A DNA stretch of 64,000 bases from a virus (lineage: Duplodnaviria > Caudoviricetes), in IMG/VR virus record IMGVR_UViG_3300031857_000001; one strand, 5' to 3'. Below the pieces are notes generated by a model. That model worked only from the letters and a program-made list of their open reading frames with translations, was not told the origin of the DNA and did no database searches. The position numbers and the translations under genes were made by a program. Of the stretch, positions 21,027 to 37,388 are shown piece by piece. Numbering within the stretch: position 1 is the stretch's first letter; the number at the start of each line of letters is the position of its first letter.

Positions 21027-22835
21027 ATGAAAAAGATTTTATTACCATTTTTACTTTCTTTAATATTTCAGTTAAGTTCCCACTCTCAATGCTCGGGTGA
21101 TATAACTTATACGTTAGATACTCCGCCAAGTGCGGACCTAACATACCCACCAAATACAGTTGTTGAGTTATGTGTTACAATGACGAATTGGGATGGTAAC
21201 GACCAAGGGTCAAATTGGTTTGAAGGGTTCGGCTTAACTCTTGGAACTGGTTGGGTTGATGTTGTACCACTGACTCCACCTAATGATGCTGATGATGTAA
21301 CAGGGACTTGGATTTGGGTTAATACTGTAACATCCGATGCCACTGGTTTAGTTGCGGGTCCTGGTTATTTCTTTGAAGGCCCGACAGGTCCATTAGATGG
21401 TAATCCAGGTAACGATTGGGGTGATTATTGTATGAATGGAGATTGTGTATGGGAATTTTGTGTATCTATGACCGCATCAGGAATTAGTGCCGACCCATTG
21501 GATATTGAAGTCACACCTTATTCTGATGGAAGTATGGGAAGTTGGGGACAAGAAATGTGTTTTGACCCTCCTGTTTCTATTTTTGACGGAGAGGTTGGTT
21601 GTACGGTTTATGGATGTACTAATCCAATTGCTTGTAACTATAATCCTAATGCTGGCTGTGATGATGGTAGTTGTAACTTACCTGGTTGTACCGACCCGAT
21701 AGCTTGTAATTATGATTTAAATGCAGATTGTGATGATGGTAGTTGTACATACCCTGGTTGTACTGACCCACTCGCTTGTAATTTTGTACCGACTGCGGGA
21801 TGTGATGATGGAAGTTGTGGGTATTTTAGTATGACCGATATAACACACAACTTCATTCCTTGCCCCGACACAACTTGTACAGGTTCAGAGGTTACATACT
21901 CCGTTAATGGAAATGAAACTTCAATTTACGATTGGCATATCACAGGTGGAGGACTTGTAACTACGGACCAAACATCTAGTTGTGAAATAATTTGGGGAGA
22001 TGTTCCGGGTACTTACACTATCACTGTACAAGAAATCACCGCTCAAGGTTGTATTGGTGATATTAAAACTTGTGATGTTGAGGTTATTATTCCCGATATA
22101 ACATTTGACACAACTGAATATACAATCTGTTTAAATGGTAGTTTGGAATTAAATGCCTATCCTGCCGGTGGAGATTGGAGTTCGGAATATATGAATCTGA
22201 ATACCTTTATTGGAACAAGGACTGGAACTTATAACCCTCAGTATACCACAAATATTCACGGATGTGATATTACAGAATCAGTTAAAGTAAAAGTTAAATC
22301 AAAATACGACGCTCCACCAATCACCTTTGCCTCGGAATACATCGACCTATGTTTAGAATCAGGTGAGGCTTACTATCTAACACCTGACTCACTAAACTAC
22401 ACATACAGTTGGTTTATTGAAAATGCAAAACAACCCGAATCAAGTAATCAATTATTCACTCAATGGCCCGATACATCTCGTGTCTACCTAATCAAAGTAA
22501 TTGGTTATGACGAGATTGGTTGTGAGAGCGAACCGAGTTTAATGTCAATCAAAGTCGAGTCTTGTCAAAGATTCTTTGCACCAAATTCATTCACACCAAA
22601 TGGGGATGGGACAAATGATATATTTGAACTGCGTGGTATGTCAGTTTACCAACCAACACTTAAAATATTTGATAGATGGGGTAATGTGGTATATCAATCA
22701 AATAATTTGTGGTGGACAGGAGATTGTGGAACTGGTTACTATTGTAATACGGATGTTTATAATTGGTTAATTGAATACCGTGATAAGGACGGATTTAATA
22801 AAGAAGAAAGAGGTTTTGTAACACTTGTTAGGTAA
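21027..22835 (+). CDS. secreted multidomain protein with Cys-rich GCTxPxACN repeats and type B T9SS (gliding-motility-associated) CTD
   Basis: Signal ..SHS-Q; three 24-aa repeats at 21612-21818; C-terminal FAPNSFTPNGDG.ND...IFDRWG..VY...G.VTLVR. Confidence 0.85.
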   Translation: MKKILLPFLLSLIFQLSSHSQCSGDITYTLDTPPSADLTYPPNTVVELCVTMTNWDGNDQGSNWFEGFGLTLGTGWVDVVPLTPPNDADDVTGTWIWVNTVTSDATGLVAGPGYFFEGPTGPLDGNPGNDWGDYCMNGDCVWEFCVSMTASGISADPLDIEVTPYSDGSMGSWGQEMCFDPPVSIFDGEVGCTVYGCTNPIACNYNPNAGCDDGSCNLPGCTDPIACNYDLNADCDDGSCTYPGCTDPLACNFVPTAGCDDGSCGYFSMTDITHNFIPCPDTTCTGSEVTYSVNGNETSIYDWHITGGGLVTTDQTSSCEIIWGDVPGTYTITVQEITAQGCIGDIKTCDVEVIIPDITFDTTEYTICLNGSLELNAYPAGGDWSSEYMNLNTFIGTRTGTYNPQYTTNIHGCDITESVKVKVKSKYDAPPITFASEYIDLCLESGEAYYLTPDSLNYTYSWFIENAKQPESSNQLFTQWPDTSRVYLIKVIGYDEIGCESEPSLMSIKVESCQRFFAPNSFTPNGDGTNDIFELRGMSVYQPTLKIFDRWGNVVYQSNNLWWTGDCGTGYYCNTDVYNWLIEYRDKDGFNKEERGFVTLVR

Positions 22836-23092
22836 TGTACGGTAAAAAAGTTATGTTAAGATTATTTTGGACGATTATTGTTATAATTTCATTGTCAATT
22901 ATGACAATGATGCTTGGTTGTTCCGGAAGACAAAAACAAAAAGAAGTGGGCGTTTATAATGTGGATACTTTATCACACATCAATTACTCCATTTACATTA
23001 TTGATAGTTGTGAGTATATAATTTTTTATGGAGGTAGTTCGACTTGGGGAAGTCATAAAGGAAATTGTAATAATCCAAAACATGTTCATTAA
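22835..23092 (+). CDS. putative lipoprotein
   Basis: Hydrophobic core + MLGC. Confidence 0.55.
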   Translation: MYGKKVMLRLFWTIIVIISLSIMTMMLGCSGRQKQKEVGVYNVDTLSHINYSIYIIDSCEYIIFYGGSSTWGSHKGNCNNPKHVH

Positions 23093-23843
23093 AAATACAA
23101 CGCCATATGTTGGCAGGTTAAAATTTAAATTTGAAAAATACCCACACTACACAGGTGGTGGTAGTGGAGTTTTAAATAAAGTTCACCTTGATTTGGGATT
23201 CACCAAGTTGGTTAGCCGTATGATTCCTTATAAAAATAATGGGTCATGGGTTGTAAACAGTGAATGTACCAAACTTATAACCAAATATACCGGAGGTAAA
23301 ATTGGGGTTCATAAATTTGGTAATAATGGCGAAAACATTCTTGAGAATTCATTTATGTCAAATGATGGAACCTACATTGGGGATATTGAAAGCGCTTGGT
23401 GGTATTACAATAACAAATTTTATGTTTGTAAGGAATACCCTGGAGGAGTTGCCATTAAGTTAAAAACTTATAGTCCTATAATTAGACTTATGAATACTAT
23501 TGAGGATGGGTATGAAAATTTTATAACCGAACAAATTGAAAATGATAATATTGAAGGTTATTATGGGTATACTCATCGTGGTGGTGCTTTGTTTAAAATA
23601 GGAGATAGAATTTTTGATAACTACTATCTACCAACTGGAAGTGATTACACTGAAGAAGAATGGAATGAGTTTAATTCAAAATTCCAAAAATCTATAAAAA
23701 ATGCCGATGAGGTAGATATGAAATATATCTATAATGAAGGAATTGCATCAGTCATTCCATTTAATAAAAGAGGAAAAAAAGTTATTGAAAATTGGAAAGA
23801 GGCTCGAGAAGCAGCAATCGCTTTATCAAAATATTTGGGGTAA
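23082..23843 (+). CDS. hypothetical protein
   Basis: ORF track; start moved to ATG 23082. Confidence 0.65.
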   Translation: MFIKNTTPYVGRLKFKFEKYPHYTGGGSGVLNKVHLDLGFTKLVSRMIPYKNNGSWVVNSECTKLITKYTGGKIGVHKFGNNGENILENSFMSNDGTYIGDIESAWWYYNNKFYVCKEYPGGVAIKLKTYSPIIRLMNTIEDGYENFITEQIENDNIEGYYGYTHRGGALFKIGDRIFDNYYLPTGSDYTEEEWNEFNSKFQKSIKNADEVDMKYIYNEGIASVIPFNKRGKKVIENWKEAREAAIALSKYLG

Positions 23844-23869
23844 TTTAAAGTATTTCGTATATTTGTATT

Positions 23870-24931
23870 GTGAATGAAATATTAAACAAATATTACGACG
23901 AGCATTTGATGTATAAACAAATACATCCGAATCTTCCACTCACCATATGGAACTACTCAGAAAAAGTTCAGTATGACAATTTGTGGGATGACATCACCAT
24001 GCAAACTCGTGGACTTGTTACTGATAACAAAGGAAATATTGTTGCCCGACCATTTAAGAAATTCTTTAACGATTCAGAAAATAAACATACTCCCACTCCT
24101 GAATTTGATGTCTATGAAAAAATGGATGGGTCTCTTGGAATTCTGTTTTACTATGAAGGTGAATGGGTTCTTGCAACTCGCGGGTCATTTACTTCTGACC
24201 AAGCGGTAAAAGGATTTGAGATGTTACAAAAGTATGACTATCAAAAACTCCACAAAGATTATACTTATTTGTTTGAGATAATCTATGATGACAACCGCAT
24301 AGTTGTTAAGTATGATTATGAAGATTTGATATTACTTGGAATGATAAATACCAAAACTGGATATGAAGTTGATTTGTATGGCGAGGGTAATGATGTTAGA
24401 TTGAAGAACCTAATCACCAATCTTGGATTCAAAGTTGTAAAGAAGTATGATGGTATAAATGATTATTCTGTTTTGAAGGAAATGATAAAGGACGATGAGG
24501 AAGGTTTTGTTGTTCGTTTCTCTAATGGAGATAGAATGAAAGTTAAGGGTGAGGAATATTTAAGATTACATAAGATAATGACAAACGTATCTACAACTGC
24601 GGTGTGGGAGATGTTAAGTGAAGGTAGGGATGTTTTGGAGATAATCAAAGATGTCCCTGATGAGTTCTACAACAAAGTTAAAAGTTATGTTAGAGATTTA
24701 AAATATACTTATTTATCTTTGAGTGAATATGCTGGAAAAACTCACGATGGGTTCCGATATGGAAAGTTTGGTGATAAAGACCCCGAGCCAACCAAAAAAG
24801 AATTTGCCGAGTTTTTATCAATGAATAACTACAATCCGATTATAAAGGCATTATGCTTTGCAATGTGGGACAAAAAGGATTATGATAAAATAATATGGAA
24901 ACATATAAAACCTGAATTTAGAAAATTATGA
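23870..24931 (+). CDS. T4 Rnl1-like RNA ligase
   Basis: ARPFKKFFN, YEKMDGSLG (motif I), FEII, EEGFV, KVK nucleotidyltransferase motifs. Confidence 0.88.
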   Translation: MNEILNKYYDEHLMYKQIHPNLPLTIWNYSEKVQYDNLWDDITMQTRGLVTDNKGNIVARPFKKFFNDSENKHTPTPEFDVYEKMDGSLGILFYYEGEWVLATRGSFTSDQAVKGFEMLQKYDYQKLHKDYTYLFEIIYDDNRIVVKYDYEDLILLGMINTKTGYEVDLYGEGNDVRLKNLITNLGFKVVKKYDGINDYSVLKEMIKDDEEGFVVRFSNGDRMKVKGEEYLRLHKIMTNVSTTAVWEMLSEGRDVLEIIKDVPDEFYNKVKSYVRDLKYTYLSLSEYAGKTHDGFRYGKFGDKDPEPTKKEFAEFLSMNNYNPIIKALCFAMWDKKDYDKIIWKHIKPEFRKL

Positions 24932-25635
24932 AAGTATTGGTATTAGGAAAAGGGAAGTTGGGTGGTGAAATTGTTAAACAAACGGGATGGGATTATCTAT
25001 GTAGAGCCGAACATGAAATTACAATAGATAATTTTGATGAATGGAAAAATAGAATGGATGAATATGATGTGGTTGTAAATTGTATTGCAAACACTGACAC
25101 ATATTCTGACAATAAAGAAAAACATTGGAAAGCAAATTACGAACTTGTAACATTCCTTGCCGAGTATTGTGATGACAACAGGAAAAAACTGGTACACATT
25201 TCAACCGACTATTTGTATCAAAAATCAGTTGAAGATGCAAAGGAGGAGGACGAACCATTGTTTGACCATAGTTGGTATTTGATGACAAAATTACTTGCTG
25301 ATGAATATTTGAAAGAACACGCAAAAAATTATTTGATTTGTAGATTGTCCCACAAACCTCATCCATTTCCATATGAAAGTGCTTGGGTTGATATTGTAAC
25401 AAATGCCGATTACACACCAGTAATCGCGGGTCTTGTAATTGAGTTAATTAAGAATGGTGCTGAAGGTCTTTATAATGTTGGAACCGAGAGAAAAACAATC
25501 TATGAACTCGCTCAAAGGACAAACAAAAGTGTACTAAAAAGTATTGCTCCCCCACATATTCCAAAAAATGTTACGATGAATATTAGTAAGATGGAGAACT
25601 TTTTAAAACAGGTTACAGAACAAATACCTTCTTAG
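24928..25635 (+). CDS. RmlD-like dTDP-4-dehydrorhamnose reductase (NAD-dependent SDR)
   Basis: LGKGKLG Rossmann motif, VVNCIA.T, HISTDY, Y..TK. Confidence 0.75.
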   Translation: MKVLVLGKGKLGGEIVKQTGWDYLCRAEHEITIDNFDEWKNRMDEYDVVVNCIANTDTYSDNKEKHWKANYELVTFLAEYCDDNRKKLVHISTDYLYQKSVEDAKEEDEPLFDHSWYLMTKLLADEYLKEHAKNYLICRLSHKPHPFPYESAWVDIVTNADYTPVIAGLVIELIKNGAEGLYNVGTERKTIYELAQRTNKSVLKSIAPPHIPKNVTMNISKMENFLKQVTEQIPS

Positions 25636-26096
25636 TATTTTTTACAAATATTTTGAGTTCCGTATATTTGGGCACCTGTTTCTCTACAACTTATTCTATC
25701 ACTCAAATATTTAAAATTGTCATTATCCTCACCTGTATGTTTTTGGATTATATTTAAAGCGGTTTTTTGGAAATCAGGGTATTGGTCGGCGTGCTGAGAT
25801 AATAACCAGTAGTTATCCCAATCTTTTTTATTAAATGAATCAAAATCAAAATTTGTGTAAATAAATTTGTTCATTCTATCCTTATCAAGAAAAATGTCAT
25901 CAGGATTTCTATGTTTTAGTTTAATCCATTCCTTGGCACCTTTTTCATAATCACCCCTTAATTCATTATTTACAAAATCCATATATTCCTTTCTCTCAAC
26001 TTGGTCTTGTTGTACAAGTTGTGATAATAAATCTGAATTACTAACATCCATATTCATTATTTCCTTAATCCTTTGTATATTTTCTTGCAGGTTCAT
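25632..26096 (-). CDS. DUF6624-like protein with MNLQENI leader
   Basis: DQ..R...WLL.QHAD..PDFQ...YL.DRI....Q.YGTQ; start moved to 26096. Confidence 0.65.
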   Translation of the reverse strand: MNLQENIQRIKEIMNMDVSNSDLLSQLVQQDQVERKEYMDFVNNELRGDYEKGAKEWIKLKHRNPDDIFLDKDRMNKFIYTNFDFDSFNKKDWDNYWLLSQHADQYPDFQKTALNIIQKHTGEDNDNFKYLSDRISCRETGAQIYGTQNICKKY

Positions 26097-26097
26097 A

Positions 26098-26700
26098 TTA
26101 ATATCCACCTTCGTTATCCAATTTATCTTCAATTTCTTGATATACTCCCGGTAATAAATCTCTCATTACGGTTGAGTAAACTACCGGTAGATAATATTCG
26201 TAATACCATTCAAATAGTTCATCCACGGTATCAAAAGATGTTTTATGTTTAAGTTGTATATAGTAATCACCACTAGGTTCCTTTTCTGCAATTATATCAC
26301 CATCTTCATTAAGTAAAGTAAACCAATCAATATCAACAGGAGTCCACGGGTTTCCGTCCCAAAAAGGAGTTGCAACCACTGAAATTTGTTCGTACATACC
26401 TGGTAAAAAATGTTTTGAATCTCTACTCATTTCCCAATATACAATCCCATCTATACCACTTGAAATTTTAAAATTTTTATATTCCCTAGGTAATTTTTTA
26501 TTTTTAAGATTAACAATTAATAATTCGTGAGCGACTTCTGAATCTATTGGGTGACCTGAGATGTCTACTAATTTAGCTAAACTTACACCTATCATTTTTG
26601 CAGTATCCTTTAACCCAAACTGACTGATATAATTATCAATCGATTTTTTTAACCGACTTTCTTCTCTTAATACTTTTCTTATAGTTTCTTGTAGGTTCAT
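26098..26700 (-). CDS. hypothetical protein with MNLQETIRKVLREE leader
   Basis: ORF track. Confidence 0.7.
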   Translation of the reverse strand: MNLQETIRKVLREESRLKKSIDNYISQFGLKDTAKMIGVSLAKLVDISGHPIDSEVAHELLIVNLKNKKLPREYKNFKISSGIDGIVYWEMSRDSKHFLPGMYEQISVVATPFWDGNPWTPVDIDWFTLLNEDGDIIAEKEPSGDYYIQLKHKTSFDTVDELFEWYYEYYLPVVYSTVMRDLLPGVYQEIEDKLDNEGGY

Positions 26701-27143
26701 TTCTTTTTCTTTTTAACACAATTTGGATATCTTTTACCAAACATAGTTTTCATTCCTTTTTGAGTATAACCTGGCCAACACTTTTCAGTTAGTTCTGATT
26801 CAGTTGTTTCCATCTTTTGAGTGCAATTATCGTTGTAATAATTTGTTAATTCTTCTCCGTAGTTTTCTCTTATGTATTTAACCACAAAGTTAGAAATGTC
26901 TATCCATTCATCGGACCTGTCATCTATTTCATAAAAAGTATTATAATACAGATTTTCTAAAATCGCTTCAGTTACAACATCACCCAATTCTCTACCATTT
27001 TCATATCTACAAATTGAATTTGGTCTATAAACGGCGCTCATTAATCTTTTAAATTCCCTATCAATCTCGTGAGTTCTTCTTAATACTTTGCTAGGCGCCC
27101 TTTCTTCTTTTAATATTCTTTTAATGGTTTCTCTTAAACTCAT
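26697..27143 (-). CDS. hypothetical protein with MSLRETIKRILKEE leader and C-terminal KCWPGY..PNCVK motif
   Basis: Start moved to 27143 (TATTTAT upstream). Confidence 0.7.
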   Translation of the reverse strand: MSLRETIKRILKEERAPSKVLRRTHEIDREFKRLMSAVYRPNSICRYENGRELGDVVTEAILENLYYNTFYEIDDRSDEWIDISNFVVKYIRENYGEELTNYYNDNCTQKMETTESELTEKCWPGYTQKGMKTMFGKRYPNCVKKKKK

Positions 27144-27211
27144 GTTAATAAATACCTCCAAAAAATGATATTTTTGTTGTGTAATTGAAATAACCTGACT
27201 ATATTTGCACC

Positions 27212-27877
27212 ATGATAAAGATTGAGAAAAATAATGACGGAACATTTCCTGAGGTATGGATTTTCTCAGACCCCCACTATAATCACAAGAACATTTGCCG
27301 TGGAACAACGAGTTGGAGGACATTAGATGGTGAAATTCCATTGGAACAAACAAGGGATTTTACAACTCTTGAAAAAATGAATGAGGCAATCCTAAACGGG
27401 ATTAATGAAAATGTAGGTCAAGATGATATTTTGATTTGTCTTGGTGACTGGTCATTTGGTGGATTTGAATCAATCGAAGAATTTAGAAATAGAATTATTT
27501 GTAGGAATATTCACCTTGTTTTAGGTAATCACGACCACCACATTGAAAGAAACAGGGATGACATCCAAAGACTTTTTACAAGTGTTAGTCATTACGAAAC
27601 ACTGGTGATTGATAAGAAGACATTCCGTTTGTTTCACTACCCAATCCAAAGTTGGAATGGAATGAATGAAGGGGATATTCACCTTCACGGACACGTTCAC
27701 CTTCCATCAAACAGAAAGTTCGGACAAGGAAAAAAAATGGATGTTGGAATTGATGGACATCCCGAGTTTAGGCCTTATAATGTTATGAGGGAAATTGTAC
27801 CCATAATGGATAAACGAGATGTGAAGTCGGACATGTTAAATGACCACCACGTTGAGAGGCTTTTAAATTCAAGGTGA
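27212..27877 (+). CDS. calcineurin-like metallophosphoesterase
   Basis: SDPHY.H.NI, LGDW, GNHD, HYP, HGHVH. Confidence 0.85.
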   Translation: MIKIEKNNDGTFPEVWIFSDPHYNHKNICRGTTSWRTLDGEIPLEQTRDFTTLEKMNEAILNGINENVGQDDILICLGDWSFGGFESIEEFRNRIICRNIHLVLGNHDHHIERNRDDIQRLFTSVSHYETLVIDKKTFRLFHYPIQSWNGMNEGDIHLHGHVHLPSNRKFGQGKKMDVGIDGHPEFRPYNVMREIVPIMDKRDVKSDMLNDHHVERLLNSR

Positions 27878-27878
27878 T

Positions 27879-28091
27879 ATGAGTGAAGAACTTTATTGTG
27901 TGAAACTAAAACATAATCTATATAACATAGTTTATGGTGAAAAAATAACTGTACCACGAGGGGAAATTATATTGGACAAAATTCCTGAAAACAAATTGGA
28001 ATTCATTGGGTATCCCCTCGTGGTCAGAGACCATGGCAACGGAGTTAAAACATTGGCGGAAAAAAACGATTGTATATTAGAAAAGATATGA
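27879..28091 (+). CDS. hypothetical protein
   Basis: ORF track. Confidence 0.5.
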   Translation: MSEELYCVKLKHNLYNIVYGEKITVPRGEIILDKIPENKLEFIGYPLVVRDHGNGVKTLAEKNDCILEKI

Positions 28092-28501
28092 GGACATTGT
28101 ATATTTTAAGAGGATTACCTGGTAGTGGTAAATCAACACTCGCAAAGACATTGGTACATAGTGGTTCTATTTGTGAAGCCGACCAATTCTTTGTAAATAA
28201 AGAAACTGGTGAATATGAGTTTAATCCTGATGAAATTAAAATTGCTCATCAGTGGTGTAAGGATGAGGTTGAGAATAAAATGAAACGCAATCAAGAAAAT
28301 CCACAATACCATCCGACAATTGTTGTATCAAATACATTTACCCAAGAGTGGGAAATGGATTGGTATTTCAAACTAGCAGAGAAATATGACTACAAAGTTT
28401 TTTCTATGATTGTTGAAAATAGACACGGAGGAAAAAACATTCACGGAGTTCCTGATGAAAAAGTCGGGATTATGAAAAATAGATTTGAGATTTCCCTTTG
28501 A
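28088..28501 (+). CDS. P-loop polynucleotide-kinase-like protein (AAA_33/N4BP2 type)
   Basis: LRGLPGSGKST, EAD.FF, AHQWC, VSNTF...WE, HGVP. Confidence 0.8.
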   Translation: MRTLYILRGLPGSGKSTLAKTLVHSGSICEADQFFVNKETGEYEFNPDEIKIAHQWCKDEVENKMKRNQENPQYHPTIVVSNTFTQEWEMDWYFKLAEKYDYKVFSMIVENRHGGKNIHGVPDEKVGIMKNRFEISL

Positions 28502-28502
28502 T

Positions 28503-28778
28503 ATGAAAATACATTTATCGGAATCAGAAATACCGTCAAAGGTAACATTTATGGGTAAGAAACTATCCTTTTATTCTGGTGGAGTTTACCATAGAACAAA
28601 AATATCAAACCCACAAGTTATAACTGTTGTTGATGCTAATGGAGATATTATAATGTCAAGTTCACCTGAACTGACACCTGATAATGTTATTGGCGATAAT
28701 GATATTACATCAATAGTTGAGTTTCATAATAGGAACGGAAATTTACCTGAATTTTATTTTTTTAACGAGGATATTTGA
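28503..28778 (+). CDS. hypothetical protein
   Basis: Start moved to ATG 28503. Confidence 0.5.
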   Translation: MKIHLSESEIPSKVTFMGKKLSFYSGGVYHRTKISNPQVITVVDANGDIIMSSSPELTPDNVIGDNDITSIVEFHNRNGNLPEFYFFNEDI

Positions 28779-28809
28779 TTTATATTTGACCAATCAAAAC
28801 AAAAATTAT

Positions 28810-29236: not shown

Positions 29237-29237
29237 T

Positions 29238-29408: not shown

Positions 29409-29411
29409 AAA

Positions 29412-30368
29412 ATGTTTTCTGATAAACTAAAAAAACTAATCGTAGAATTTCTACTCAAAGACCTTATGCGGGTTGAAATCATTTACTACAAAGATAGTAT
29501 TTGGTTTATCGATAGGGAGCAGAGGTATTGGTATTTTGAATACCATAAAGAAGATAAACATCTTTGGTGGAGGTGGTCTCATTTCCAATCTGCCCTTACA
29601 ATGTTTTCACTAAATGGTGAAGAACATCAGTATCTATTTGGTGAATTGGTTAATATTATTTTGAATAAAAAACAAAAACTTGAAACCAAATATCCCGATA
29701 AAGTTTTTAAAACCGTTGGAAGTATCCTTAACTTTAAAGAGGAATCCAAAGAGGTATTAAATTCCAAGGTAAACACAACCGGGGTGAGGTATTTTAATGG
29801 CGAATGGCGGGTGGAAGAGGCATTAAATTGCGAGGTAGAAACATCTTCACCTCACAACGATTGCGGTGGATGGGCGGTGGAAGAGGTATTAAACCACAAT
29901 GTAGAAACAACCGCATTTCATCCATTCAACAACTATGGCGCGGTGGAAGAGGTATTAAACCACGATGTAGTAACAATAGGAGAGGCATACCACAATGACG
30001 ATTATGTTACAGAGGAAATACTAAATAATACCATTAATACATATCGTTCAGGTGAGTTGGTGGATGAAGAAAAACTGATTAATAATGTTTTGAATTATGG
30101 GGTAGATACAATTGAAATAAAATCAATTAGAAAATTAAAAGGTGAAAGTCCCCTCCAAGATATTGTTGTTAGTCATATTCTTGATGAATCGGAAAAGGTT
30201 ACAGATAAGTTGAAGATTAAAGAAGATGACCGTGTTAAGTCATATAGTTGTGATGTTTTTATGTGTGATTTTTTAGTTCAAAATGTTTTGGATATTGGGT
30301 CAAATTCAATTAATTTTGACGTAACATCACAACAGGGTAGAGTTGACGGAGTGTTGAAAAATTCCTAA
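29412..30368 (+). CDS. protein with Trp/Tyr-rich N-terminus and 22-aa VEEVLNxxVxT repeats
   Basis: At least five repeat units; 66-bp DNA period at about 29750-30100. Confidence 0.8.
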   Translation: MFSDKLKKLIVEFLLKDLMRVEIIYYKDSIWFIDREQRYWYFEYHKEDKHLWWRWSHFQSALTMFSLNGEEHQYLFGELVNIILNKKQKLETKYPDKVFKTVGSILNFKEESKEVLNSKVNTTGVRYFNGEWRVEEALNCEVETSSPHNDCGGWAVEEVLNHNVETTAFHPFNNYGAVEEVLNHDVVTIGEAYHNDDYVTEEILNNTINTYRSGELVDEEKLINNVLNYGVDTIEIKSIRKLKGESPLQDIVVSHILDESEKVTDKLKIKEDDRVKSYSCDVFMCDFLVQNVLDIGSNSINFDVTSQQGRVDGVLKNS

Positions 30369-30399
30369 AGTGTAAAATAAAAAGTTACTTTTTTGTAAA

Positions 30400-30633
30400 A
30401 TGGAAAAGATTGATAAATTATACGAGCAACTTGAGAACTTTCAGTATGTTCAGGTAAAAATGAGAGATGAAGGGTTTGATTATTGTTTCAGACATTATTC
30501 ATCATTTGAAGAAGTTGAAGATGAAAAGTTTCATTCTTTGCGGGAATCGTATATAAAAATTGCCGAGGAACTTGAAGAATATGTTGAAAGTAAAATAAAT
30601 CAGATTCAAGACGAAATACAAGAAGAAATATGA
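30400..30633 (+). CDS. hypothetical protein
   Basis: ORF track. Confidence 0.6.
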   Translation: MEKIDKLYEQLENFQYVQVKMRDEGFDYCFRHYSSFEEVEDEKFHSLRESYIKIAEELEEYVESKINQIQDEIQEEI

Positions 30634-30956
30634 AACAAGAAACTACGGGCAAACAGTTCGCTGAATCTGCGGATAAAGTAATTACAGTTACGAGAAAACA
30701 AACTGCGGTTGAATGGATGGTTGAGCAAGTTGAACTAATTTCCAACAATAAAACTTTATCAAAAAAAGATGCGGTTAAATTGTATGATGAAGTAATTCAA
30801 CAATCCAAAGCAATGGTGAATGAACAGATAATGGAGGCTTATATGAAAGCTAAATTAGAACATATAGACACATTAGGTTTAAATGCTGTGAAAAATAAAA
30901 TAATCAAGGATACTGAACAATACTTTCAAGAAACATACGGAGGTGACAAATGTTAG
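30630..30956 (+). CDS. KQTAVEW-family small protein, copy 1
   Basis: KQTAVEW..Q.KAM..EQI..AY...Y.GGDK. Confidence 0.75.
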   Translation: MKQETTGKQFAESADKVITVTRKQTAVEWMVEQVELISNNKTLSKKDAVKLYDEVIQQSKAMVNEQIMEAYMKAKLEHIDTLGLNAVKNKIIKDTEQYFQETYGGDKC

Positions 30957-31123
30957 CGATATCATTAAAAAAACATGAATTGGATGCACTGAATGAGTTG
31001 ATAAATCAAATCGAAGCTGTGAACGCTGCGGGAATGAATCAGGTGTTTAATAATAACGCCATAAGGATTTTGAAATTCAATATAATTGAACACTTAAACG
31101 AAATTGAAGGAGGTGACAAATGA
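30950..31123 (+). CDS. small hypothetical protein ending GGDK (57 aa)
   Basis: Manual translation MLAISLKKHELDALN...EIEGGDK*; bounded by GGAGGTGACAAATG junctions. Confidence 0.6.
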   Translation: MLAISLKKHELDALNELINQIEAVNAAGMNQVFNNNAIRILKFNIIEHLNEIEGGDK

Positions 31124-31329
31124 GTAAACAAACCGCAGTAGAGTGGATAGTTAGTAAACTATCCATTACATTTCAAACAATGTATAGCGAAGAAATTGAA
31201 CAAGCCAAAGCAATGGAGAAGGAGCAGATAATTAAAGCATTCTGTGAAGGGTATGACCACGATGGTGATAATTATGATGGAGCGGAAATAAGCTACTATA
31301 ACAGAACATACAAAGGAGGTGACAAATGA
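31120..31329 (+). CDS. KQTAVEW-family small protein, copy 2
   Basis: Shares AAAGCAATGGAGAAGGAGCAGATAATT with copy 3. Confidence 0.75.
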   Translation: MSKQTAVEWIVSKLSITFQTMYSEEIEQAKAMEKEQIIKAFCEGYDHDGDNYDGAEISYYNRTYKGGDK

Positions 31330-31547
31330 GTAAACAAACAGCAGTAGAATGGTTAGAACTCGAATTAAAAAAACTACCTTTTGTAGATGTAGTTGAAGTC
31401 TTTCAAAAAGCTAAAGCAATGGAGAAGGAGCAGATAATTGAAGCTCACTTAACACCACTATCCAATGAATATTGGTTTCAGAAAGATGAAATATTAAATC
31501 AAGAATCAGAAAAATACTACAACGAAACTTATGGAGGTGAAAAATGA
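31326..31547 (+). CDS. KQTAVEW-family small protein, copy 3
   Basis: MSKQTAVEW...AKAMEKEQII...YYNETYGGEK. Confidence 0.75.
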   Translation: MSKQTAVEWLELELKKLPFVDVVEVFQKAKAMEKEQIIEAHLTPLSNEYWFQKDEILNQESEKYYNETYGGEK

Positions 31548-31822
31548 ATAATACGGAAATAACACCAGTACCCGAAGTGGTTGCTGACACAAGACGAGTT
31601 TGTGAGATACGATTTGATTGTATGGTAACAATGCATGATGTTGCGTATAGAAAATATAAGGAAATGTGGGGACAGGAGAAACAATCCAAAACACCCCAAT
31701 GGTTTAAAGCCAATCATATTCTAACATTAGAAATGGTTAAACATGCCGACCCATACGATTTGGGAATGAGAATTAAAGAAATGTTTCATCAACTAGAAAA
31801 AACAATAGAAAGTTATGAGTAA
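31544..31822 (+). CDS. hypothetical protein
   Basis: ORF track; translationally coupled. Confidence 0.6.
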   Translation: MNNTEITPVPEVVADTRRVCEIRFDCMVTMHDVAYRKYKEMWGQEKQSKTPQWFKANHILTLEMVKHADPYDLGMRIKEMFHQLEKTIESYE

Positions 31823-32918
31823 TTGGATAGAAACACAATATCTTCATCTGTTAGAAGATATTTTAGAAAAGGGTGTTGAAAAGAAAGATAGAACAGGTAC
31901 TGGTACCTTATCAATATTCGGTAGACAGATTCGTCATAACATGAAGGATGGGTTTCCATTGCTTACAACCAAGAAGATGGCCTTTAAAACTATGGTAACT
32001 GAATTACTGTGGTTTTTAAGAGGTGATACCAACATCAAATACCTTGTTGATAACAATTGTCATATTTGGGATGGTGATGCTCATAAGAATTACTTACACA
32101 AAGTTATTCGTGATAAAGACATTGTAAGGTATTTAAAATCATATTCAATAGATACAAATGGTGTTCCTACTATTGAACCATACTCAAAAGAAGAATTTAT
32201 TGAACGAATTAAAAACGATGATGAGTTTGCAGAACAGTGGGGTGAATTAGGACCTATTTATGGAGCACAATGGAGAAATTGGCTAAACATCCCAGGTGAA
32301 CTCAATAAGGGAGGTACAGACCAAATTGCTAATCTAATCTCTGAACTCAAAACAAACCCAGACTCAAGACGATTAATGGTTAATGCTTATAATATAGGTG
32401 AATTAGACCAAATGGTTCTTCCACCCTGTCATTACGGATTTCAAGTTTATACAAGAGAGTTGTCAATATATGAAAGAGCAAAAATATATGCTAAAAAGAA
32501 TAGTACTGAAATAAAAATTGATACTACTGATGACCATACCGCTTTGCATTTGTACTATACAACAAACAATGTACCTACCAGAGCAATCTCTCTAATGTGG
32601 AATCAAAGGTCGGTAGACACACTATTGGGGCTTCCATTCAATATAGCGTCATATGGGTTGTTATTAGAAATCATTGCCAAAGAAGTTAATATGGTTCCTG
32701 ATGAGTTGATTGGTAACTTAGGTGATGTACATTTATATCTAAATCATATTGAGCAGGCTAAGGAACAAATTAGTAGAACACCTTATAATTTGCCTAAATT
32801 AGGTGTGGATTATAGAGAGGATGAATATGATAAAAATTTAAAAGACTTTGTACCTGATGATTTTTATCTAATAGATTATCAATCACACCCAGCAATTAAA
32901 GCACCTTTAAGTAATTAA
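31815..32918 (+). CDS. thyA: thymidylate synthase
   Basis: DRTGTGT, FPLLTTKK, ELLWFL, GPIYG.QWR, LPPCH, QRS.D..LGLPFNIASY, H.Y.NH. Confidence 0.97.
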   Translation: MSNWIETQYLHLLEDILEKGVEKKDRTGTGTLSIFGRQIRHNMKDGFPLLTTKKMAFKTMVTELLWFLRGDTNIKYLVDNNCHIWDGDAHKNYLHKVIRDKDIVRYLKSYSIDTNGVPTIEPYSKEEFIERIKNDDEFAEQWGELGPIYGAQWRNWLNIPGELNKGGTDQIANLISELKTNPDSRRLMVNAYNIGELDQMVLPPCHYGFQVYTRELSIYERAKIYAKKNSTEIKIDTTDDHTALHLYYTTNNVPTRAISLMWNQRSVDTLLGLPFNIASYGLLLEIIAKEVNMVPDELIGNLGDVHLYLNHIEQAKEQISRTPYNLPKLGVDYREDEYDKNLKDFVPDDFYLIDYQSHPAIKAPLSN

Positions 32919-32919
32919 A

Positions 32920-33168
32920 ATGAAAATAACTCTGTTAAACTACGAAGGCCCCGTTCTTTGGGCCAAAAGCTCGGATTCGGGTATTGCAATCTACGACCAA
33001 TGGAATGAGCTGGTTGAAGTTCTAACAAGGGAAGAATTTTGTTCTTTTATTGATGGTGAAATGAAATTGATGGACAGTAGAGAACGAGCATGGATTTACA
33101 CCGAACAAAGCCAAGAAGCACGACAAAAGTTCTCCAAACTTTTTGAATTTTTAAACCTAAATAACTAA
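32920..33168 (+). CDS. hypothetical protein
   Basis: ORF track. Confidence 0.55.
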   Translation: MKITLLNYEGPVLWAKSSDSGIAIYDQWNELVEVLTREEFCSFIDGEMKLMDSRERAWIYTEQSQEARQKFSKLFEFLNLNN

Positions 33169-33169
33169 T

Positions 33170-33364
33170 ATGGATAATTTCCAACACATTTTAAAACAAA
33201 TTTCAGAATCTTTATCAAAGGTTTCATACGACAATGGAAATTTGTCTGATGTTGGAAATGAAGTTGGAATTGTCATCGGAAATTATATAACAACCGAACA
33301 GGATTTTAAAGATTTTGTTCAAGGATTAAGACACGGAATATCCCTCACAAATGGAGAACACTGA
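33170..33364 (+). CDS. hypothetical protein
   Basis: ORF track. Confidence 0.5.
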   Translation: MDNFQHILKQISESLSKVSYDNGNLSDVGNEVGIVIGNYITTEQDFKDFVQGLRHGISLTNGEH

Positions 33365-33812
33365 AGATTTATGGTGTAACTATTCTGATTTACCAAGTGT
33401 AATGAGTTACGAACAACCAAAAAAGAAATATCCCGACAATATTGTATGGAGTGAAGAGCGTGGGTATTACGCTCACCTTCTTCCATATGCAACAAACATC
33501 GGAGCACCAGTCATATCACCTGACAATGTATCAACATGGAAGAATGAAAAGATTTTAAAAACCAATCATTACTTCAATAGAAAATACGAGGAGATAAAAG
33601 AACAATATCAAAAATTACTTGAGGAATTTGAGTGGAATAGTATTGTGTATAATGCAACATATAATTTTCAACCAATTATCGGACAAGAATATTATTTGTA
33701 TCGTAGAAAAAGTGGAGAATATTTCTTATCATTAATCAAACCAACCGAGTGGAAGGAAAACCACATTGGAACATTTGAATTGGATTCTGATAATAAATGG
33801 AAAAAAATATAA
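33351..33812 (+). CDS. DUF2452-like protein
   Basis: YNFQPIIGQEYYLY.R..G..FLSLI.P.EW pattern. Confidence 0.65.
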   Translation: MENTEDLWCNYSDLPSVMSYEQPKKKYPDNIVWSEERGYYAHLLPYATNIGAPVISPDNVSTWKNEKILKTNHYFNRKYEEIKEQYQKLLEEFEWNSIVYNATYNFQPIIGQEYYLYRRKSGEYFLSLIKPTEWKENHIGTFELDSDNKWKKI

Positions 33813-33815
33813 GTT

Positions 33816-34031
33816 ATGATACAAAAAACAACATTATCTTCAGAAATTGATTTGACGTGTAGTACATTAACCGCAAACCCTGACCTTACGATTGAATCCG
33901 GTCCTAAGTATGTGGGATGTTATCAACTAGGTGGGAGTATGGGATTACAAATTTATCTTGCAAAAAAACCAAAATGGCTCCATAGAAAAATGATGAAACT
34001 ATGTTTGGGATTTGAGTGGATTAATAAGTAA
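33816..34031 (+). CDS. hypothetical protein
   Basis: ORF track. Confidence 0.5.
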   Translation: MIQKTTLSSEIDLTCSTLTANPDLTIESGPKYVGCYQLGGSMGLQIYLAKKPKWLHRKMMKLCLGFEWINK

Positions 34032-34056
34032 AACAATAGAAAGTTACGAATAATAT

Positions 34057-34407
34057 ATGATGGAAGATTTAAAACATAAGTGGGAACAAATTGACGAGGA
34101 CGATTATGTTGCCAAGTATCGTGATATGATGCTACGAGTTGAAAAGATGGATGAGCAACAATGGTGGTGGGCGGTTTATAGAGGAAAAGAAGAACTATGT
34201 CCCGAGAAACCATTTGCAAGAAAAAAAGATTATGCGATGAAGATGGCTCAGGAATGTGCCGAAGAAAATATTGGACCTTATGTATCAGATGACTTTCAGA
34301 TTGGACCGGATGGTGCTTACGAGCATACAGATGATATGGAAGATTGGGACAATACTTTAATGGATGGACTTGAAGATGATGATACAAATAGCGAAGAATG
34401 GGAATAA
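34057..34407 (+). CDS. acidic hypothetical protein
   Basis: ORF track. Confidence 0.55.
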   Translation: MMEDLKHKWEQIDEDDYVAKYRDMMLRVEKMDEQQWWWAVYRGKEELCPEKPFARKKDYAMKMAQECAEENIGPYVSDDFQIGPDGAYEHTDDMEDWDNTLMDGLEDDDTNSEEWE

Positions 34408-34622
34408 TTAAATTACATAAAATGGGAAAAGATATAGGAACGGTTAGTTACACCGATAAGCGAGATTCTATAAAACAGATTGAGTTAATCACTGATAGAT
34501 TTAAAAAAGGTAAAATCAATAACGAAGATTATATCAAACTTATTCACGAAAACTTACAAAAACTAACAACTAAAAGAAATTATATTGGTTATTTGATGAA
34601 TATAGGACAATTAGATAATTGA
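34398..34622 (+). CDS. hypothetical protein
   Basis: ORF track. Confidence 0.45.
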   Translation: MGIIKLHKMGKDIGTVSYTDKRDSIKQIELITDRFKKGKINNEDYIKLIHENLQKLTTKRNYIGYLMNIGQLDN

Positions 34623-34623
34623 T

Positions 34624-35076
34624 ATGGAATTAATAACGACATACATTTGTAAGAAAGGTGACGAGGGTGTTCACGGAAATATGTTCGGAGGTTTAATACT
34701 CGGGCTTATTGATGATGCGGCTGCTTCATACGCCTCTCAAATCTGTGACACTCAAAAGATTGTTACATTGAAGATTGATGAGTTGTTATTTAAACGAGCG
34801 GTAAAAGTTGGAAACATATTAAAAGTTTATGGTGAGGTCGTTTCATTTGGTAATACCTCTGTTACACTTTATATCGAAGTTAGAAAACACAATGTTTATA
34901 CAGGTGAGCAAGACATTGTAACTCAAACAAAAATTGTTTTTGTTAGAATTGATGAGGACGGAAAACCCAGACCGATTCATCATCATGTTAAAGAAAGATA
35001 CTGGGAAAGATTAGAAAAATTTGGAAAGGGTCTCCTAACTCCCGAAGAAAAATTTAGAATTGGTTCAGAGATTTAA
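34624..35076 (+). CDS. hotdog-fold acyl-CoA thioesterase (YciA-like)
   Basis: HGNMFGG.IL..ID.AA...VT..ID...F...VKVG...GNTS...FVRIDE.GKPRPI. Confidence 0.85.
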   Translation: MELITTYICKKGDEGVHGNMFGGLILGLIDDAAASYASQICDTQKIVTLKIDELLFKRAVKVGNILKVYGEVVSFGNTSVTLYIEVRKHNVYTGEQDIVTQTKIVFVRIDEDGKPRPIHHHVKERYWERLEKFGKGLLTPEEKFRIGSEI

Positions 35077-36208
35077 GAATATTATTGTCTTAATAATACT
35101 CACATTATGTGGGTTAATTTCTATTGCCCAATGTCCAAACGCAAATTTTGAATTTGGTAATTTTACAAACTGGACAGGGAGAAGAGGATTTTGTTGCCCA
35201 ATTGATTTACCTTTTGCTGGAATTTTTCCGGGAAGACAAACAATTGTAAGTGCGGGTATTGACCCCAATACATGCGGAGGTCTCAATACGGTTTATGACG
35301 GAAATTTTTCAGCCCGTCTTGGAAACAACCAAAACAATGCAAGAGCTGAAGGTTTATATTATACATTTACTGTTAGTCCGGCAACAACTTTGATACAGTA
35401 CGCTTACGCGGTTGTATTACAAGACCCTGGCCATAGCGATGGGGCTCAACCAAGATTTCAATCAAGAGTTAGACTTGCAAACGGAACAGTAATTCCTTGT
35501 ACCGAGTACATGGTGACGGCCGGACCTAATTTGCCAGGTTTTAATTATTGTACAATGCCGGGCAACCCAACACCAATAGCTTGGAGTGATTGGAGGGTTA
35601 TATCATTAGACTTATCAGGGTATGTTGGACAAAGTGTTACACTTGAATTTGAAACGGGTGATTGTGATTTAGGTGCTCACTATGGATATGCCTATATCGA
35701 CGCAATATCTTGTGGTCCGATTGAAACAAAAGTTTATTATTGTCAGGCAAGTGATTCTACATTGATTGAAGGTCCGGAAGGTTTTGCGACATACCAATGG
35801 TCACCAACAGGAGATAACACAAGAGTTATTACTATTCCATCAAATACTTACACCAATTTGACATTGAGTGTAACAACTATTACAGGATGTGAACTTGACC
35901 TTCAAATAATCCTTGACCCGATACCCTTATTATCAAGTATAATATGTGAAGATGTATGTTTTCCTGACATAGTTAATTTTACAAATTTAACACCACCTAT
36001 TCAGGGGTATCAAACCGCCTATTTATGGGACTTCGATGATGGACAAACTTCAAATTTATATTCTCCATCACATACGTATAGTTCTCCCGGTGTCTATAAT
36101 GTGACGATGACCGCTCATGTTGTGGGGACAAATTGCACAGACAACGCAAATTGTGAAGTTGAGGTTTACGACATTCCAATAATACCTGGAATTATTAGCC
36201 ACGATTAG
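35060..36208 (+). CDS. secreted PKD-domain protein ending ISHD
   Basis: Signal ..SIA-Q; CPN.NFE.GNF..W; YLWDFDDG...SPSHTYSSPG.Y.VT PKD motif; no T9SS CTD. Confidence 0.8.
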   Translation: MVQRFKNIIVLIILTLCGLISIAQCPNANFEFGNFTNWTGRRGFCCPIDLPFAGIFPGRQTIVSAGIDPNTCGGLNTVYDGNFSARLGNNQNNARAEGLYYTFTVSPATTLIQYAYAVVLQDPGHSDGAQPRFQSRVRLANGTVIPCTEYMVTAGPNLPGFNYCTMPGNPTPIAWSDWRVISLDLSGYVGQSVTLEFETGDCDLGAHYGYAYIDAISCGPIETKVYYCQASDSTLIEGPEGFATYQWSPTGDNTRVITIPSNTYTNLTLSVTTITGCELDLQIILDPIPLLSSIICEDVCFPDIVNFTNLTPPIQGYQTAYLWDFDDGQTSNLYSPSHTYSSPGVYNVTMTAHVVGTNCTDNANCEVEVYDIPIIPGIISHD

Positions 36209-36255
36209 TCTTTTTCAAGATATTTATAGTAGAATAAACTCTAACTACTTTAAAC

Positions 36256-36813
36256 ATGAAAAAACTCTTATTACTTGTACTGGCAATACTACCAATCACA
36301 CTTTTTGCTCAATTTACCACAATTAATCCCGATACAGTCTGTATAAATGACCCTTTTGCAACTTATCAGGTTCCAAATACTCCAAACTATACTTATGTAT
36401 GGTCAGTTTCGGCTCCCGGTATTTTAACATCAGGACAAGGAACTAATGAAATAACTGTCGACTGGTCGGCCGCTCCTGCGGGCGGTCCTATAGTAGATGC
36501 GATTAGTGTTTATGCAACAACACCTGCTGGTTGTGACGGACCCCCAATCACGATGAATGTATTTATTCTTGAAATCAACCCTGTGGTTACTCCACTTGTA
36601 TTTTGTGAAGGTGACCCTTGCGAAGATTTGGTTGCAACACCGGCTGGTGGTGTATTCTCAGGACCAAACATTGTTAATGGTCAATATTGCCCACAAACGG
36701 AGGGAACAGAAACGGTGACTTACACCATAACTGAGGCGGGATGTACATTCACTGCGACAGCTGATATGACCGTCTATCCAATTCCTGTTTTAGACAATAT
36801 TTCACATGACTAA
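36256..36813 (+). CDS. secreted Ig/PKD-like protein ending ISHD
   Basis: Signal ..LFA-Q; PDTVC..TY.V...Y.W.V...GQGTNEITVDW; PAGG.FSG; no T9SS CTD. Confidence 0.75.
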   Translation: MKKLLLLVLAILPITLFAQFTTINPDTVCINDPFATYQVPNTPNYTYVWSVSAPGILTSGQGTNEITVDWSAAPAGGPIVDAISVYATTPAGCDGPPITMNVFILEINPVVTPLVFCEGDPCEDLVATPAGGVFSGPNIVNGQYCPQTEGTETVTYTITEAGCTFTATADMTVYPIPVLDNISHD

Positions 36814-36815
36814 GA

Positions 36816-37388
36816 ATGAAAAACATAAAAACAATCTTGTTGTTGTTTTTTGTTATGATTATGCTTGGTCAGCAACAAGAAATAGACATTTGTGAAGAGG
36901 AGTCTAAAAAAGAATACACCTATTCAATACAGTCTGACACACCAAATACAACATTTTATTGGTATGTTGATGGTGTTTACCATTTTGGACAAACTCTAAC
37001 CGTAAACTGGGAAACTTATTCGCCCGGTATTCACACCGTAAAAGTTTATGGTAAAAGTGGAGATTGTAGGTCAGAACCCATGGAGTTTAAAGTACATATA
37101 GGTGAGTGCTCTTCAATCTACATACCAAACGCATTTACACCAAATGCCGATGGATTTAATGATACTTGGTTCCCACAAGGAACAGGATGGGAAAGTATCG
37201 AAGTACTTGTGTTTGATAGATGGGGAGAGTTAGTTTTTCAATCAGTAGACCCAAAAGGACAGTGGATTGGAAATTTTAGAGGTGGTGACTATTATGTTCA
37301 AAATGATGTGTATGAATATAAAGTCACTTGGAAGGGAATTGACAACGAACCTGAAATAATTTTTGGTCATGTAACGGTTGTTAGGTAA
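36816..37388 (+). CDS. secreted protein with type B T9SS CTD
   Basis: YIPNAFTPNADGFND...VFDRWGELVF...NDVY.Y...GHVTVVR. Confidence 0.85.
   Translation: MKNIKTILLLFFVMIMLGQQQEIDICEEESKKEYTYSIQSDTPNTTFYWYVDGVYHFGQTLTVNWETYSPGIHTVKVYGKSGDCRSEPMEFKVHIGECSSIYIPNAFTPNADGFNDTWFPQGTGWESIEVLVFDRWGELVFQSVDPKGQWIGNFRGGDYYVQNDVYEYKVTWKGIDNEPEIIFGHVTVVR

Follow-up and report, generated by a model that had tools for sequence, protein, structure and literature searches.

A conserved C-terminal I-x-H-[D/N] tail, a putative docking peptide, on CTD-less proteins encoded beside a type B T9SS cargo gene in a jumbo phage of freshwater Flavobacteriia

Here we describe a short C-terminal tail, I-x-H-[D/N], found on CTD-less proteins encoded next to a small protein that bears a type B CTD of the T9SS. 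The window, that is, the whole 64,000-nucleotide stretch of phage DNA that was analysed, holds I[ST]H[DN] at three places only among its 244 stop-to-stop ORFs of at least 60 aa: at the ends of the first two proteins of a three-gene cassette, and inside a single-chain cargo protein. Because there are just these three occurrences, always at the end of a module, we do not take the motif to be due to chance. On balance, and with modest confidence, the comparison of sequences inclines us to read the tail as a C-terminal docking peptide joining the CTD-less modules to the CTD carrier.

The three-gene cassette lies on the plus strand. Its head gene (35060..36208, TTG start) encodes 382 aa, comprising a signal peptide, a head domain of family 1, a PKD domain (PF18911 PKD_4, 45.5 bits) and a Pro-rich linker, and ends in ..IIPGIISHD (ISHD at 36194-36205); the tail is kept in its orthologues, which are 63-91% identical. 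The stalk gene (36256..36813) encodes 185 aa with a signal peptide, the mature N-terminus QFTTINPDTVC and two Ig-like domains (PF19408 PKD_6, 39.2 bits for a cut-off of 25), and ends in ..PIPVLDNISHD (ISHD at 36799-36810). The anchor gene (36816..37388) begins 2 nt past the stalk stop codon and encodes 190 aa with a signal peptide, one Ig-like domain and a type B CTD (at about 37119-37382; PF13585 49.4 bits, TIGR04131 47.4 bits). Neither PF13585 nor TIGR04131 matched a CTD in the head or stalk protein, and these two are therefore not type B cargo themselves; their own signal peptides, missing CTD and ISHD ends are as the initial annotation had described them. ISHD is written with different codons in the two genes (ATT AGC CAC GAT and ATT TCA CAT GAC). 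The 47-nt gap preceding the stalk gene contains ATATTTATA (36220..36228, plus strand), of which the window has 11 copies for 3.65 expected, a number reached by no shuffle; the copies mostly lie shortly upstream of ATGs, and we regard it as a candidate promoter element.

The single-chain gene (21027..22835, plus strand) encodes 602 aa from an MKK start; its ORF opens at 21006 and the homologues begin at the MKK. Orthologues with 61-83% identity were found on five phage contigs. Along the chain follow a signal peptide and a head of family 2 (21027..21593, with a hydrophobic N-terminus), three Cys repeats of the form GC[TI]DPxACN[YF]..A.CDDGSC without a Pfam match (21600..21821), the I-T-H-N (21840..21851), a stalk-like region with two Ig/PKD-like domains (21864..22295) and an anchor-like region made of an Ig-like domain and a type B CTD (22329..22832), all read on the plus strand. 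The CTD itself (about 22578-22826) is matched by PF13585 CHU_C over residues 525-607 with 57 bits (cut-off 27) and by TIGR04131 with 41 bits (cut-off 35). The signal peptide is probably cleaved before the Q of ..SSHSQC. In this protein and the three of the cassette alike, a Q comes after a hydrophobic N-terminal core, the usual pattern in substrates of Bacteroidota signal peptidase I, and by sequence all four carry Sec signal peptides.

The internal motif that had been noticed in this protein is well placed at a module junction: ITHN is invariant in six orthologues of the fused family between variable flanks and is directly followed by [FL]IPCPDTTC, which in the window's protein (FIPCPDTTC) resembles the mature N-terminus of the stalk. 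An AF2 model of residues 262-445 (mean pLDDT 85) superposed by VIA-align on the ColG PKD domain 4jrw_A (Z 9.2, rmsd 2.3 A, 82 of 87 residues). Within it the ITHN stretch has a block pLDDT of 82-86 and forms beta-bridges at T-H and I-P, and whole PKD domains align from residue 10 of the model. ITHN is thus modelled as an ordered part beside the first PKD-like domain.

The initial annotation had proposed that one cargo occurs in the window both fused and split, to be seen on aligning the fused protein with the three others. This held for two of the three modules: residues 287-430 match the stalk protein (BLASTP, E 8e-8) and residues 442-609 the anchor protein (E 3e-20), but the N-terminal domain found no match in the head (best E 0.26). 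The two loci therefore share stalk and anchor and not the whole cargo, and since the heads differ, the trio does not represent the window's fused protein in split form. Other phages do have genuine split and fused counterparts of either head. Family 2 occurs in locus L018 as a separate 200-aa head protein that ends in INHN and is 38% identical to the fused head domain (E 4e-34), and family 1 occurs in an 877-aa fused relative with PKD repeats and a CTD.

The tail was surveyed in 80 metagenome loci plus viral loci, which yielded 75 distinct complete stalk proteins. All 75 end in [IV]xH[DNY], and the gene immediately upstream of the stalk encodes the same end in 67 of 70 cases, the three exceptions being unrelated genes in front of what are two-gene cassettes. 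In one head family the best 120 homologues (57-95% identity) all end in [IV]xH[ND] with nothing after it; G -6, I -4, H -2 and N -1 are kept among the last seven residues, behind a variable Pro-rich linker. At least seven head families devoid of mutual BLAST similarity have the tail in common, and the downstream gene carries the CTD motif PNxFTPN in 61 of 63 related cassettes. The modular structure suspected from the window alone is borne out by these many heads, which share a single conserved stalk and anchor. Across the cassettes the genes of stalk and anchor overlap or are separated by 2 nt, and each has a signal peptide of its own.

Synonymous codons are used at every conserved tail position (ATA/ATT/ATC, CAT/CAC, AAT/AAC), and selection therefore acts on the protein. 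The last residues of head and stalk tails are N/N in 51 cassettes, D/D in nine, Y/Y in one (INHY and IQHY) and N/D in two, a matching that is confounded by the relatedness of the cassettes. Conservation within the stalk protein is highest at its mature N-terminus, the putative acceptor side, where Q19, T22, N24, P25, D26, V28 and C29 are invariant.

What becomes of the motif when modules are naturally fused? In fused proteins of 758 and 734 aa the two junctions read ..GPITYSDTAC and ..ILDITNDQ, and in a 355-aa stalk and anchor fusion the junction reads ..NPTPVIPQQPNQSVELC, none of them with H-[DN]; the second junction of the window's own fused family is variable (ITFA, IIYS, ISYT). By sequence, this absence from most fused junctions fits what an assembly tag predicts. 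The exception is the fused family of the window with its invariant ITHN, which a motif needed only when split does not explain. MAFFT can also align this ITHN with the stalk's own TTIN. The suggestion that ISHD is an assembly or sorting element is supported in so far as the tail is conserved and specific to the CTD-less members of split cassettes. The stalk domains are homologous to repeats of Bacteroidota adhesins of 1-6 kaa, in whose giant members VSIT..GPFC aligns with TTIN-PDTVC of the stalk. The stalk thus appears from its sequence to have an A-strand-like N-terminus of its own already, and a simple model in which it lacks a strand is therefore not supported.

Taken together, the preferred reading of the tail as a docking peptide would run as follows. 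In the window this jumbo phage of freshwater Flavobacteriia encodes two versions of a modular host-style surface adhesin that would be exported via the host T9SS. In the split version, three proteins would be exported separately by Sec, with the CTD on the anchor only. Head and stalk each end, behind a Pro-rich linker, in Phi-x-x-I-x-H-[D/N]-COOH. This would be a docking tail for the PKD-like domain at the N-terminus of the following module, the head docking onto the stalk and the stalk onto the anchor or another stalk. Head-to-tail assembly of the three pieces would take place in the periplasm or at the translocon, and the one CTD of the assembly would serve both to carry and to anchor it, on a PorP/SprF-type shuttle of the host. 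Keeping the modules separate would leave heads swappable by recombination upon a constant stalk and anchor. Possible roles are the display of binding modules at the surface and the masking or modification of phage receptors linked to gliding and the T9SS. That the tail binds, what it binds, the co-export and the biological role are all points that we infer.

Other readings of the tail have to be weighed against docking. It could be a trans-acting sorting signal for the host machinery (a PorP/SprF-type shuttle, PorV, the SprA translocon or a periplasmic chaperone), each CTD-less protein being exported or placed individually. One common reader would indeed explain why head and stalk have the identical motif, usually down to the last residue; the motif sits at the extreme C-terminus as other sorting signals do, and the cassette is found in a host-type chromosome too. 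However, the motif strictly accompanies the conserved genes of stalk and anchor, its loss on fusion to a CTD fits better with a link to the CTD carrier, and the literature searched contained no such T9SS signal, so that we regard this reading as unlikely. We judge it quite unlikely that the H-[D/N] end does chemistry, either as a covalent (isopeptide or ester) link in the manner of split CnaB-type tags, as a metal bridge, or through self-cleavage after ITHN, which would yield the same end. We identified no Lys or other nucleophile as a partner, and a cassette ending in Y at both tails is hard to reconcile with a role for Asp or Asn, even though the His and the terminal Asp/Asn are otherwise invariant, the position between I and H being free, and the acceptor N-terminus has an invariant N-P-D-T that is a potential metal site. 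Self-cleavage, or a site bound in cis, would also account for the invariant ITHN in a continuous fused chain. Self-processing of the Hint/intein type was rejected, as the window proteins had no match to such a domain and all six orthologues have F or L after HN instead of the Cys, Ser or Thr of inteins.

It is improbable, too, that the tail is a mere structural cap giving stability or protease protection to the last Ig-like domain, with each of the three proteins acting alone, for instance as a binding protein that stays in the periplasm or is released. I-[ST] is an ordinary inter-domain strand in continuous adhesins (VSIT in the giant adhesins, ITYS and ITND in the fused phage proteins), but a cap has no need for an invariant His and a fixed end past a variable linker in at least seven unrelated head families, nor would one expect to find it strictly together with the stalk and anchor pair. 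As to an artefact, with the split due to a pseudogene, a sequencing error, or a programmed frameshift or read-through of one long gene, every downstream gene does lie in the -1 frame of the preceding one. This reading is nevertheless already contradicted by the comparative data and has hardly any probability left: each piece has its own signal peptide, for which a read-through product would have no use, the stops persist in at least 75 distinct cassettes with variable spacing, and a contig from an RNA library crosses the junction of stalk stop and anchor start unchanged.

The structure had been called phage-encoded, but it is not specifically so. A Flavobacteriales chromosome contains the same cassette, made of a head (770 aa, ..ITHN), two stalks that are 97% identical and both end in ..IQHN, and an anchor (CHU_C), and the cassette is therefore not phage-specific. 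The tandem stalks fit a chain in which one stalk could dock on the tail of another. Some phage lineages carry the cassette as an insertion in the tail-gene operon. The missing PorP/SprF-like partner was confirmed by searches with PF11751, which found none among the neighbouring window genes or in two related phage genomes rated complete by CheckV. The same search found 10 and 8 copies in two Flavobacteriales genomes, none of them adjoining the bacterial cassette. The gene of such a shuttle often neighbours that of its cargo. Orphan type B cargo with a distant shuttle is known (PMC12618676), and the missing adjacent shuttle is therefore compatible with type B cargo.

What would the tail mean for the T9SS? 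The literature searched held no description of it. T9SS cargo recognition is thought to go through a CTD on the same polypeptide, and we know of no demonstration that the T9SS exports a non-covalent complex. A seven-residue tail coupling CTD-less proteins to a small CTD carrier would, if true, be a new rule of T9SS export and display, explain many 'orphan' secreted Ig-repeat proteins of Bacteroidota, and provide a very short tag for surface display. More tentatively, I-x-H-[D/N]-COOH may serve Flavobacteriia and their phages generally as a plug-in tag, an extension that we find rather doubtful; it would be a first case of hitch-hiking T9SS cargo and a natural system for swapping adhesin heads, used by phages to change the decoration of the cells that they infect. 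In any case the cassettes show that host-type surface adhesins with exchangeable heads are carried by jumbo phages of freshwater Flavobacteriia, and their presence points to a deliberate remodelling of the infected cell surface, the site of phage receptors linked to gliding and the T9SS.

Among known systems, the nearest are the single-chain type B CTD adhesins served by PorP/SprF-type shuttles, such as SprB/SprF of Flavobacterium johnsoniae and PG1035/PorP of P. gingivalis (PMC12618676, PMC9143113). Like SprB-type adhesins, the proteins described here have a Sec signal peptide, tandem Ig/PKD/SprB-type repeats and a C-terminal TIGR04131/PF13585 domain. Unlike them, head and stalk can be separate CTD-less polypeptides with an I-x-H-[DN] end, a carrier of 190 aa bears the CTD, and a shuttle gene is adjacent neither in the phages nor in the bacterial copy. 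Variable genes with host T9SS sorting domains, whose products are presumed to be secreted by the host, have been described in 'Cryophage' of Bacteroidota (Bellas et al. 2020, PMC7468147); that cargo consists of type A CTD enzymes and a PA14 protein, all single chains (PMC7468147). The cargo here is by comparison of type B, adhesin-like and partly split into putative docking modules.

The proposed joining of Ig-like subunits head to tail recalls type V pili (FimA/Mfa1) and chaperone-usher pili, in which Ig-like subunits are linked by a short terminal strand of the neighbour. However, there is here no lipoprotein precursor, proteolytic maturation or usher: the fused, head, stalk and anchor proteins have no lipobox of the usual form, and the neighbouring genes include no usher or chaperone families. 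Moreover, the acceptor appears to retain its own first strand, unlike in donor-strand pili. The proposal shares with SpyTag/SpyCatcher (split CnaB2), which is engineered, a short terminal peptide with a key Asp or Asn that would dock as a strand on an Ig-like domain, but no Lys/Glu partner was identified here; the isopeptide domains of Gram-positive pilins are intramolecular. Branched phage tailspike systems likewise set swappable heads on a conserved adaptor through a short interface, as virion parts assembled in the cytoplasm, and the proposed cassette would resemble them in its exchangeable heads, its conserved anchor and the swapping of specificity by recombination. The signal peptides and the T9SS tag imply that the proteins described here would be exported from the infected cell, unlike tailspike adaptors.

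Translations and family scans give the fused cargo (21027-22835) a signal peptide and a type B CTD, the T9SS C-terminal export domain (CHU_C/TIGR04131). The split trio consists of a head (35060-36208, 382 aa; signal peptide, PKD), a stalk (36256-36813, 185 aa; signal peptide, PKD_6) and an anchor (36816-37388, 190 aa; signal peptide, one Ig-like domain, type B CTD). The initial annotation had credited head and stalk with their own signal peptides, no CTD and a C-terminal ISHD, which translations and family scans bear out, and had placed ITHN at the internal junction of the fused protein, where the translation indeed has it (21840-21851), just before FIPCPDTTC, a stretch resembling the mature stalk N-terminus QFTTINPDTVC. 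Among the 244 ORFs of the window, I[ST]H[DN] is limited to these three sites. The further proposal that one cargo is present here both fused and split stood for only two of the three modules: in BLASTP the fused protein matches the stalk (E 8e-8) and the anchor (E 3e-20), but no match to the 35060 head is supported (best E 0.26). The window thus holds two cargos that share a stalk/anchor design and differ in their heads. The fused cargo also carries three copies (21600-21821) of a Cys-rich repeat, GC[TI]DPxACN[YF]..A.CDDGSC, for which Pfam has no family. On another phage contig (L046:37-1323) the same repeat opens a protein with a type A CTD (Por_Secre_tail), which adjoins a secreted thioredoxin-like protein.

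Elsewhere, each module exists in both split and fused versions. For the head of the fused protein, the separate counterpart (38% identity, E 4e-34) has 200 aa, ends in INHN and is encoded by the first gene of a three-gene cassette in the phage locus L018 and many other loci. The 35060 head shares 51% identity with the N-terminus of a single chain of 877 aa that contains PKD repeats and a CTD. A third head family has a split form of 243 aa (..EILHN) and fused forms of 758 and 734 aa, and stalk and anchor are joined in one 355-aa protein. The junctions read ITYS and ITND in the 758- and 734-aa proteins and ITFA, IIYS or ISYT at the second junction of the window's fused family, and that of the 355-aa fusion is a plain linker. 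Single-chain joins keep the inter-domain strand I-[ST] and drop H-[DN]. This does not hold for the first junction in the window's fused family, where ITHN[FL]IPCPDTTC is invariant among orthologues 61-83% identical.

The tail itself is strongly conserved. Scanning metagenomes with the stalk alignment yielded 436 confirmed matches, of which the best 80 loci were pooled with the viral loci. In this set [IV]xH[DNY] ends 75 of 75 distinct complete stalk proteins and the products of 67 of the 70 immediately upstream genes, the other three genes being unrelated; on the downstream side, 61 of 63 genes have the CTD motif, and the remaining two are still type-B-CTD-like at their end. In eight loci the stalk genes have slightly divergent N-termini and an unchanged tail. 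The heads fall into at least seven groups without mutual BLAST similarity, containing SprB-type repeats, Gly-rich regions, CUB, PKD and other domains. A search with the L018 head returned 222 matches, of which the best 120 all end in [IV]xH[ND] (INHN 43, ISHN 42, IQHN 10, ILHN 9, ITHN 8, IIHN 6, VSHN 1, ILHD 1); in heads of this type, a conserved Phi-G-x-I-x-H-N lies behind a variable Pro-rich linker.

Could the motif be a property of the DNA rather than of the protein? A DNA-level repeat or recombination site is rejected because the codons differ: head and stalk encode ISHD with different codons, and synonymous variants are used at the I, H and N/D positions across tails. Selection therefore acts on the peptide, including the precise position at which the chain stops. 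A frameshift, a read-through or a pseudogene is rejected as well, since every one of the pieces bears a signal peptide and the stop codons between them are conserved. Intein-like H-N cleavage was also discarded, as a Hint domain is absent and the next residue is wrong. The reading with the best support is a modular T9SS adhesin in which the modules that lack a CTD would bear a C-terminal docking peptide; the peptide would join each such module to the next one, and hence to the sole CTD carrier. This reading draws on the link of the motif to split forms, its independence of head family, its conservation at the protein level, its loss on fusion and the existence of tandem stalk genes. When the last residue of the tail (D/N) was compared with the anchor columns, the best column had R/K in 13 of 13 D-type cassettes; we set this covariation aside, as a single clade accounts for 10 of the 13 and the comparison ran over about 190 columns.

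The tandem stalks come from bacteria. A profile scan of genome contigs with a 14-row stalk alignment recovered full-length stalk genes in Flavobacteriales MAGs (a 4-row alignment in the same type of scan recovered adhesin repeats only). One MAG has, on a 974-kb contig, a four-gene cassette on the minus strand (L210:7875-12220) with a 770-aa head (CUB, PKD and P-domain, ..ITHN), two tandem stalk genes 97% identical and both ending ..IQHN, and a CHU_C anchor of 191 aa; next to the cassette are genes for a radical SAM enzyme, a DEAD-box helicase, an O-methyltransferase and HipA. A second MAG has the same layout, and the cassette is therefore not confined to phages. The tandem stalks fit a chain in which the tail of one stalk would dock on another stalk.

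The absence of a PorP/SprF-like partner (the shuttle of type B CTDs) from the window, also noted initially, was confirmed among the neighbouring genes, and no PorP/SprF gene was found in related phages, including two complete genomes. The L210 genome has 10 PorP/SprF genes, none near its cassette, which provides a positive control for the null result in the two complete phages; these have exactly two CHU_C genes each. In the 322-kb record, nearest relative of the window's phage, this pair consists of the fused gene and the anchor of the split set. The product of 38251-39036 (plus strand), which has 261 aa, starts with a signal peptide and ends in ..LQILF, was considered as the partner. It groups with Bacteroidota outer-membrane beta-barrels (Gcw_chp/MetA-type leads, TM 0.71-0.77, Atlas structure and feature search) and has no Pfam match; it was rejected, as it does not match PorP/SprF and is not kept beside the cassette in relatives.

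On sequence grounds the window region is phage DNA. It encodes a T4-type RNA ligase (23870-24931; phrog_562, E 1e-67) and a thymidylate synthase (31815-32918) whose DNA is 80-83% identical to that of Flavobacterium myophages. A plus-strand gene at 23028-23843 matches PF25188 Tad6, a type I Thoeris inhibitor family, above the cut-off (E 2.4e-13, 50.8 bits) and is a candidate anti-defence gene. The close relatives of the locus are IMG/VR contigs of 165-322 kb, two of them rated complete, and 17 DNA runs that belong to studies of freshwater and lakes (2019-2025) contain near-identical cassette DNA; one of these runs may be the source sample. None of the four cargo proteins matched PHROGs. At 20507-21025 (plus strand) lies a gene whose 172-aa product has several hydrophobic helices. 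The gene overlaps the fused cargo gene at its start and keeps its place directly upstream on six contigs of related phages (64-74% identity); the protein may be linked to the fused cargo. In one phage lineage (L039:3347-5124 and L047:2720-4996) the split trio or the 758-aa fused form lies within the tail operon, with the tail tube gene on one side and the baseplate-hub and tape-measure genes on the other, a moron-like insertion in a late operon.

The sequence ATATTTATA occurs 11 times in the window (3.65 expected; no shuffle reached 11), at sites including 10624, 19242, 36220 and 39185. Since most copies lie 13-36 nt before start codons, it is a candidate phage promoter element. The 36220 copy precedes the stalk gene, and one RNA-library contig starts just past it, at 36235, although contigs cannot show a transcript start. 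RNA-library contigs from two studies cover the stalk gene, with partial coverage of the locus, and one spans the junction between stalk stop and anchor start unchanged. These contigs lend weak support to transcription, as such libraries can contain DNA.

How would the tail dock? AF2 on the entire fused protein with a 5-row alignment was unusable (pLDDT 44). Modelling of residues 262-445 with a 42-row alignment gave two Ig/PKD-like domains at a mean pLDDT of 85, with the ITHN stretch ordered (block pLDDT 82-86); alignments with complete PKD domains begin at model residue 10 (for ColG 4jrw_A, Z 9.2, rmsd 2.3 A, 82 aligned). In a complex prediction of the head C-terminal part with stalk and anchor, the stalk being the partner, a control with chain 3 replaced scored no lower than the real complex, so that this prediction bears neither way on binding. 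A stalk-domain search gave 2693 matches, mostly proteins of 1-6 kaa in which 10-60 stretches match; the stalk domains are ordinary repeats of giant Bacteroidota adhesins. The junction in these giants, V.V.A.PTVSIT..GPFC, suggests that the stalk N-terminus TTIN-PDTVC is a normal first strand and that the tail resembles a second copy of it. A plain missing strand supplied by the tail is thus unsupported, as the stalk appears to have its own; the docking peptide may act by strand augmentation, through a metal-bridged end or by way of a covalent link. What we infer is that the tail binds and in which geometry, that the modules are co-exported by the T9SS, and what biological purpose this serves. 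We found no description of CTD-less partners with such tails in the literature searched; a phage-encoded T9SS cargo of type A has been reported (PMC7468147), and type B CTDs have been described together with their shuttles (PMC9143113, PMC12618676).
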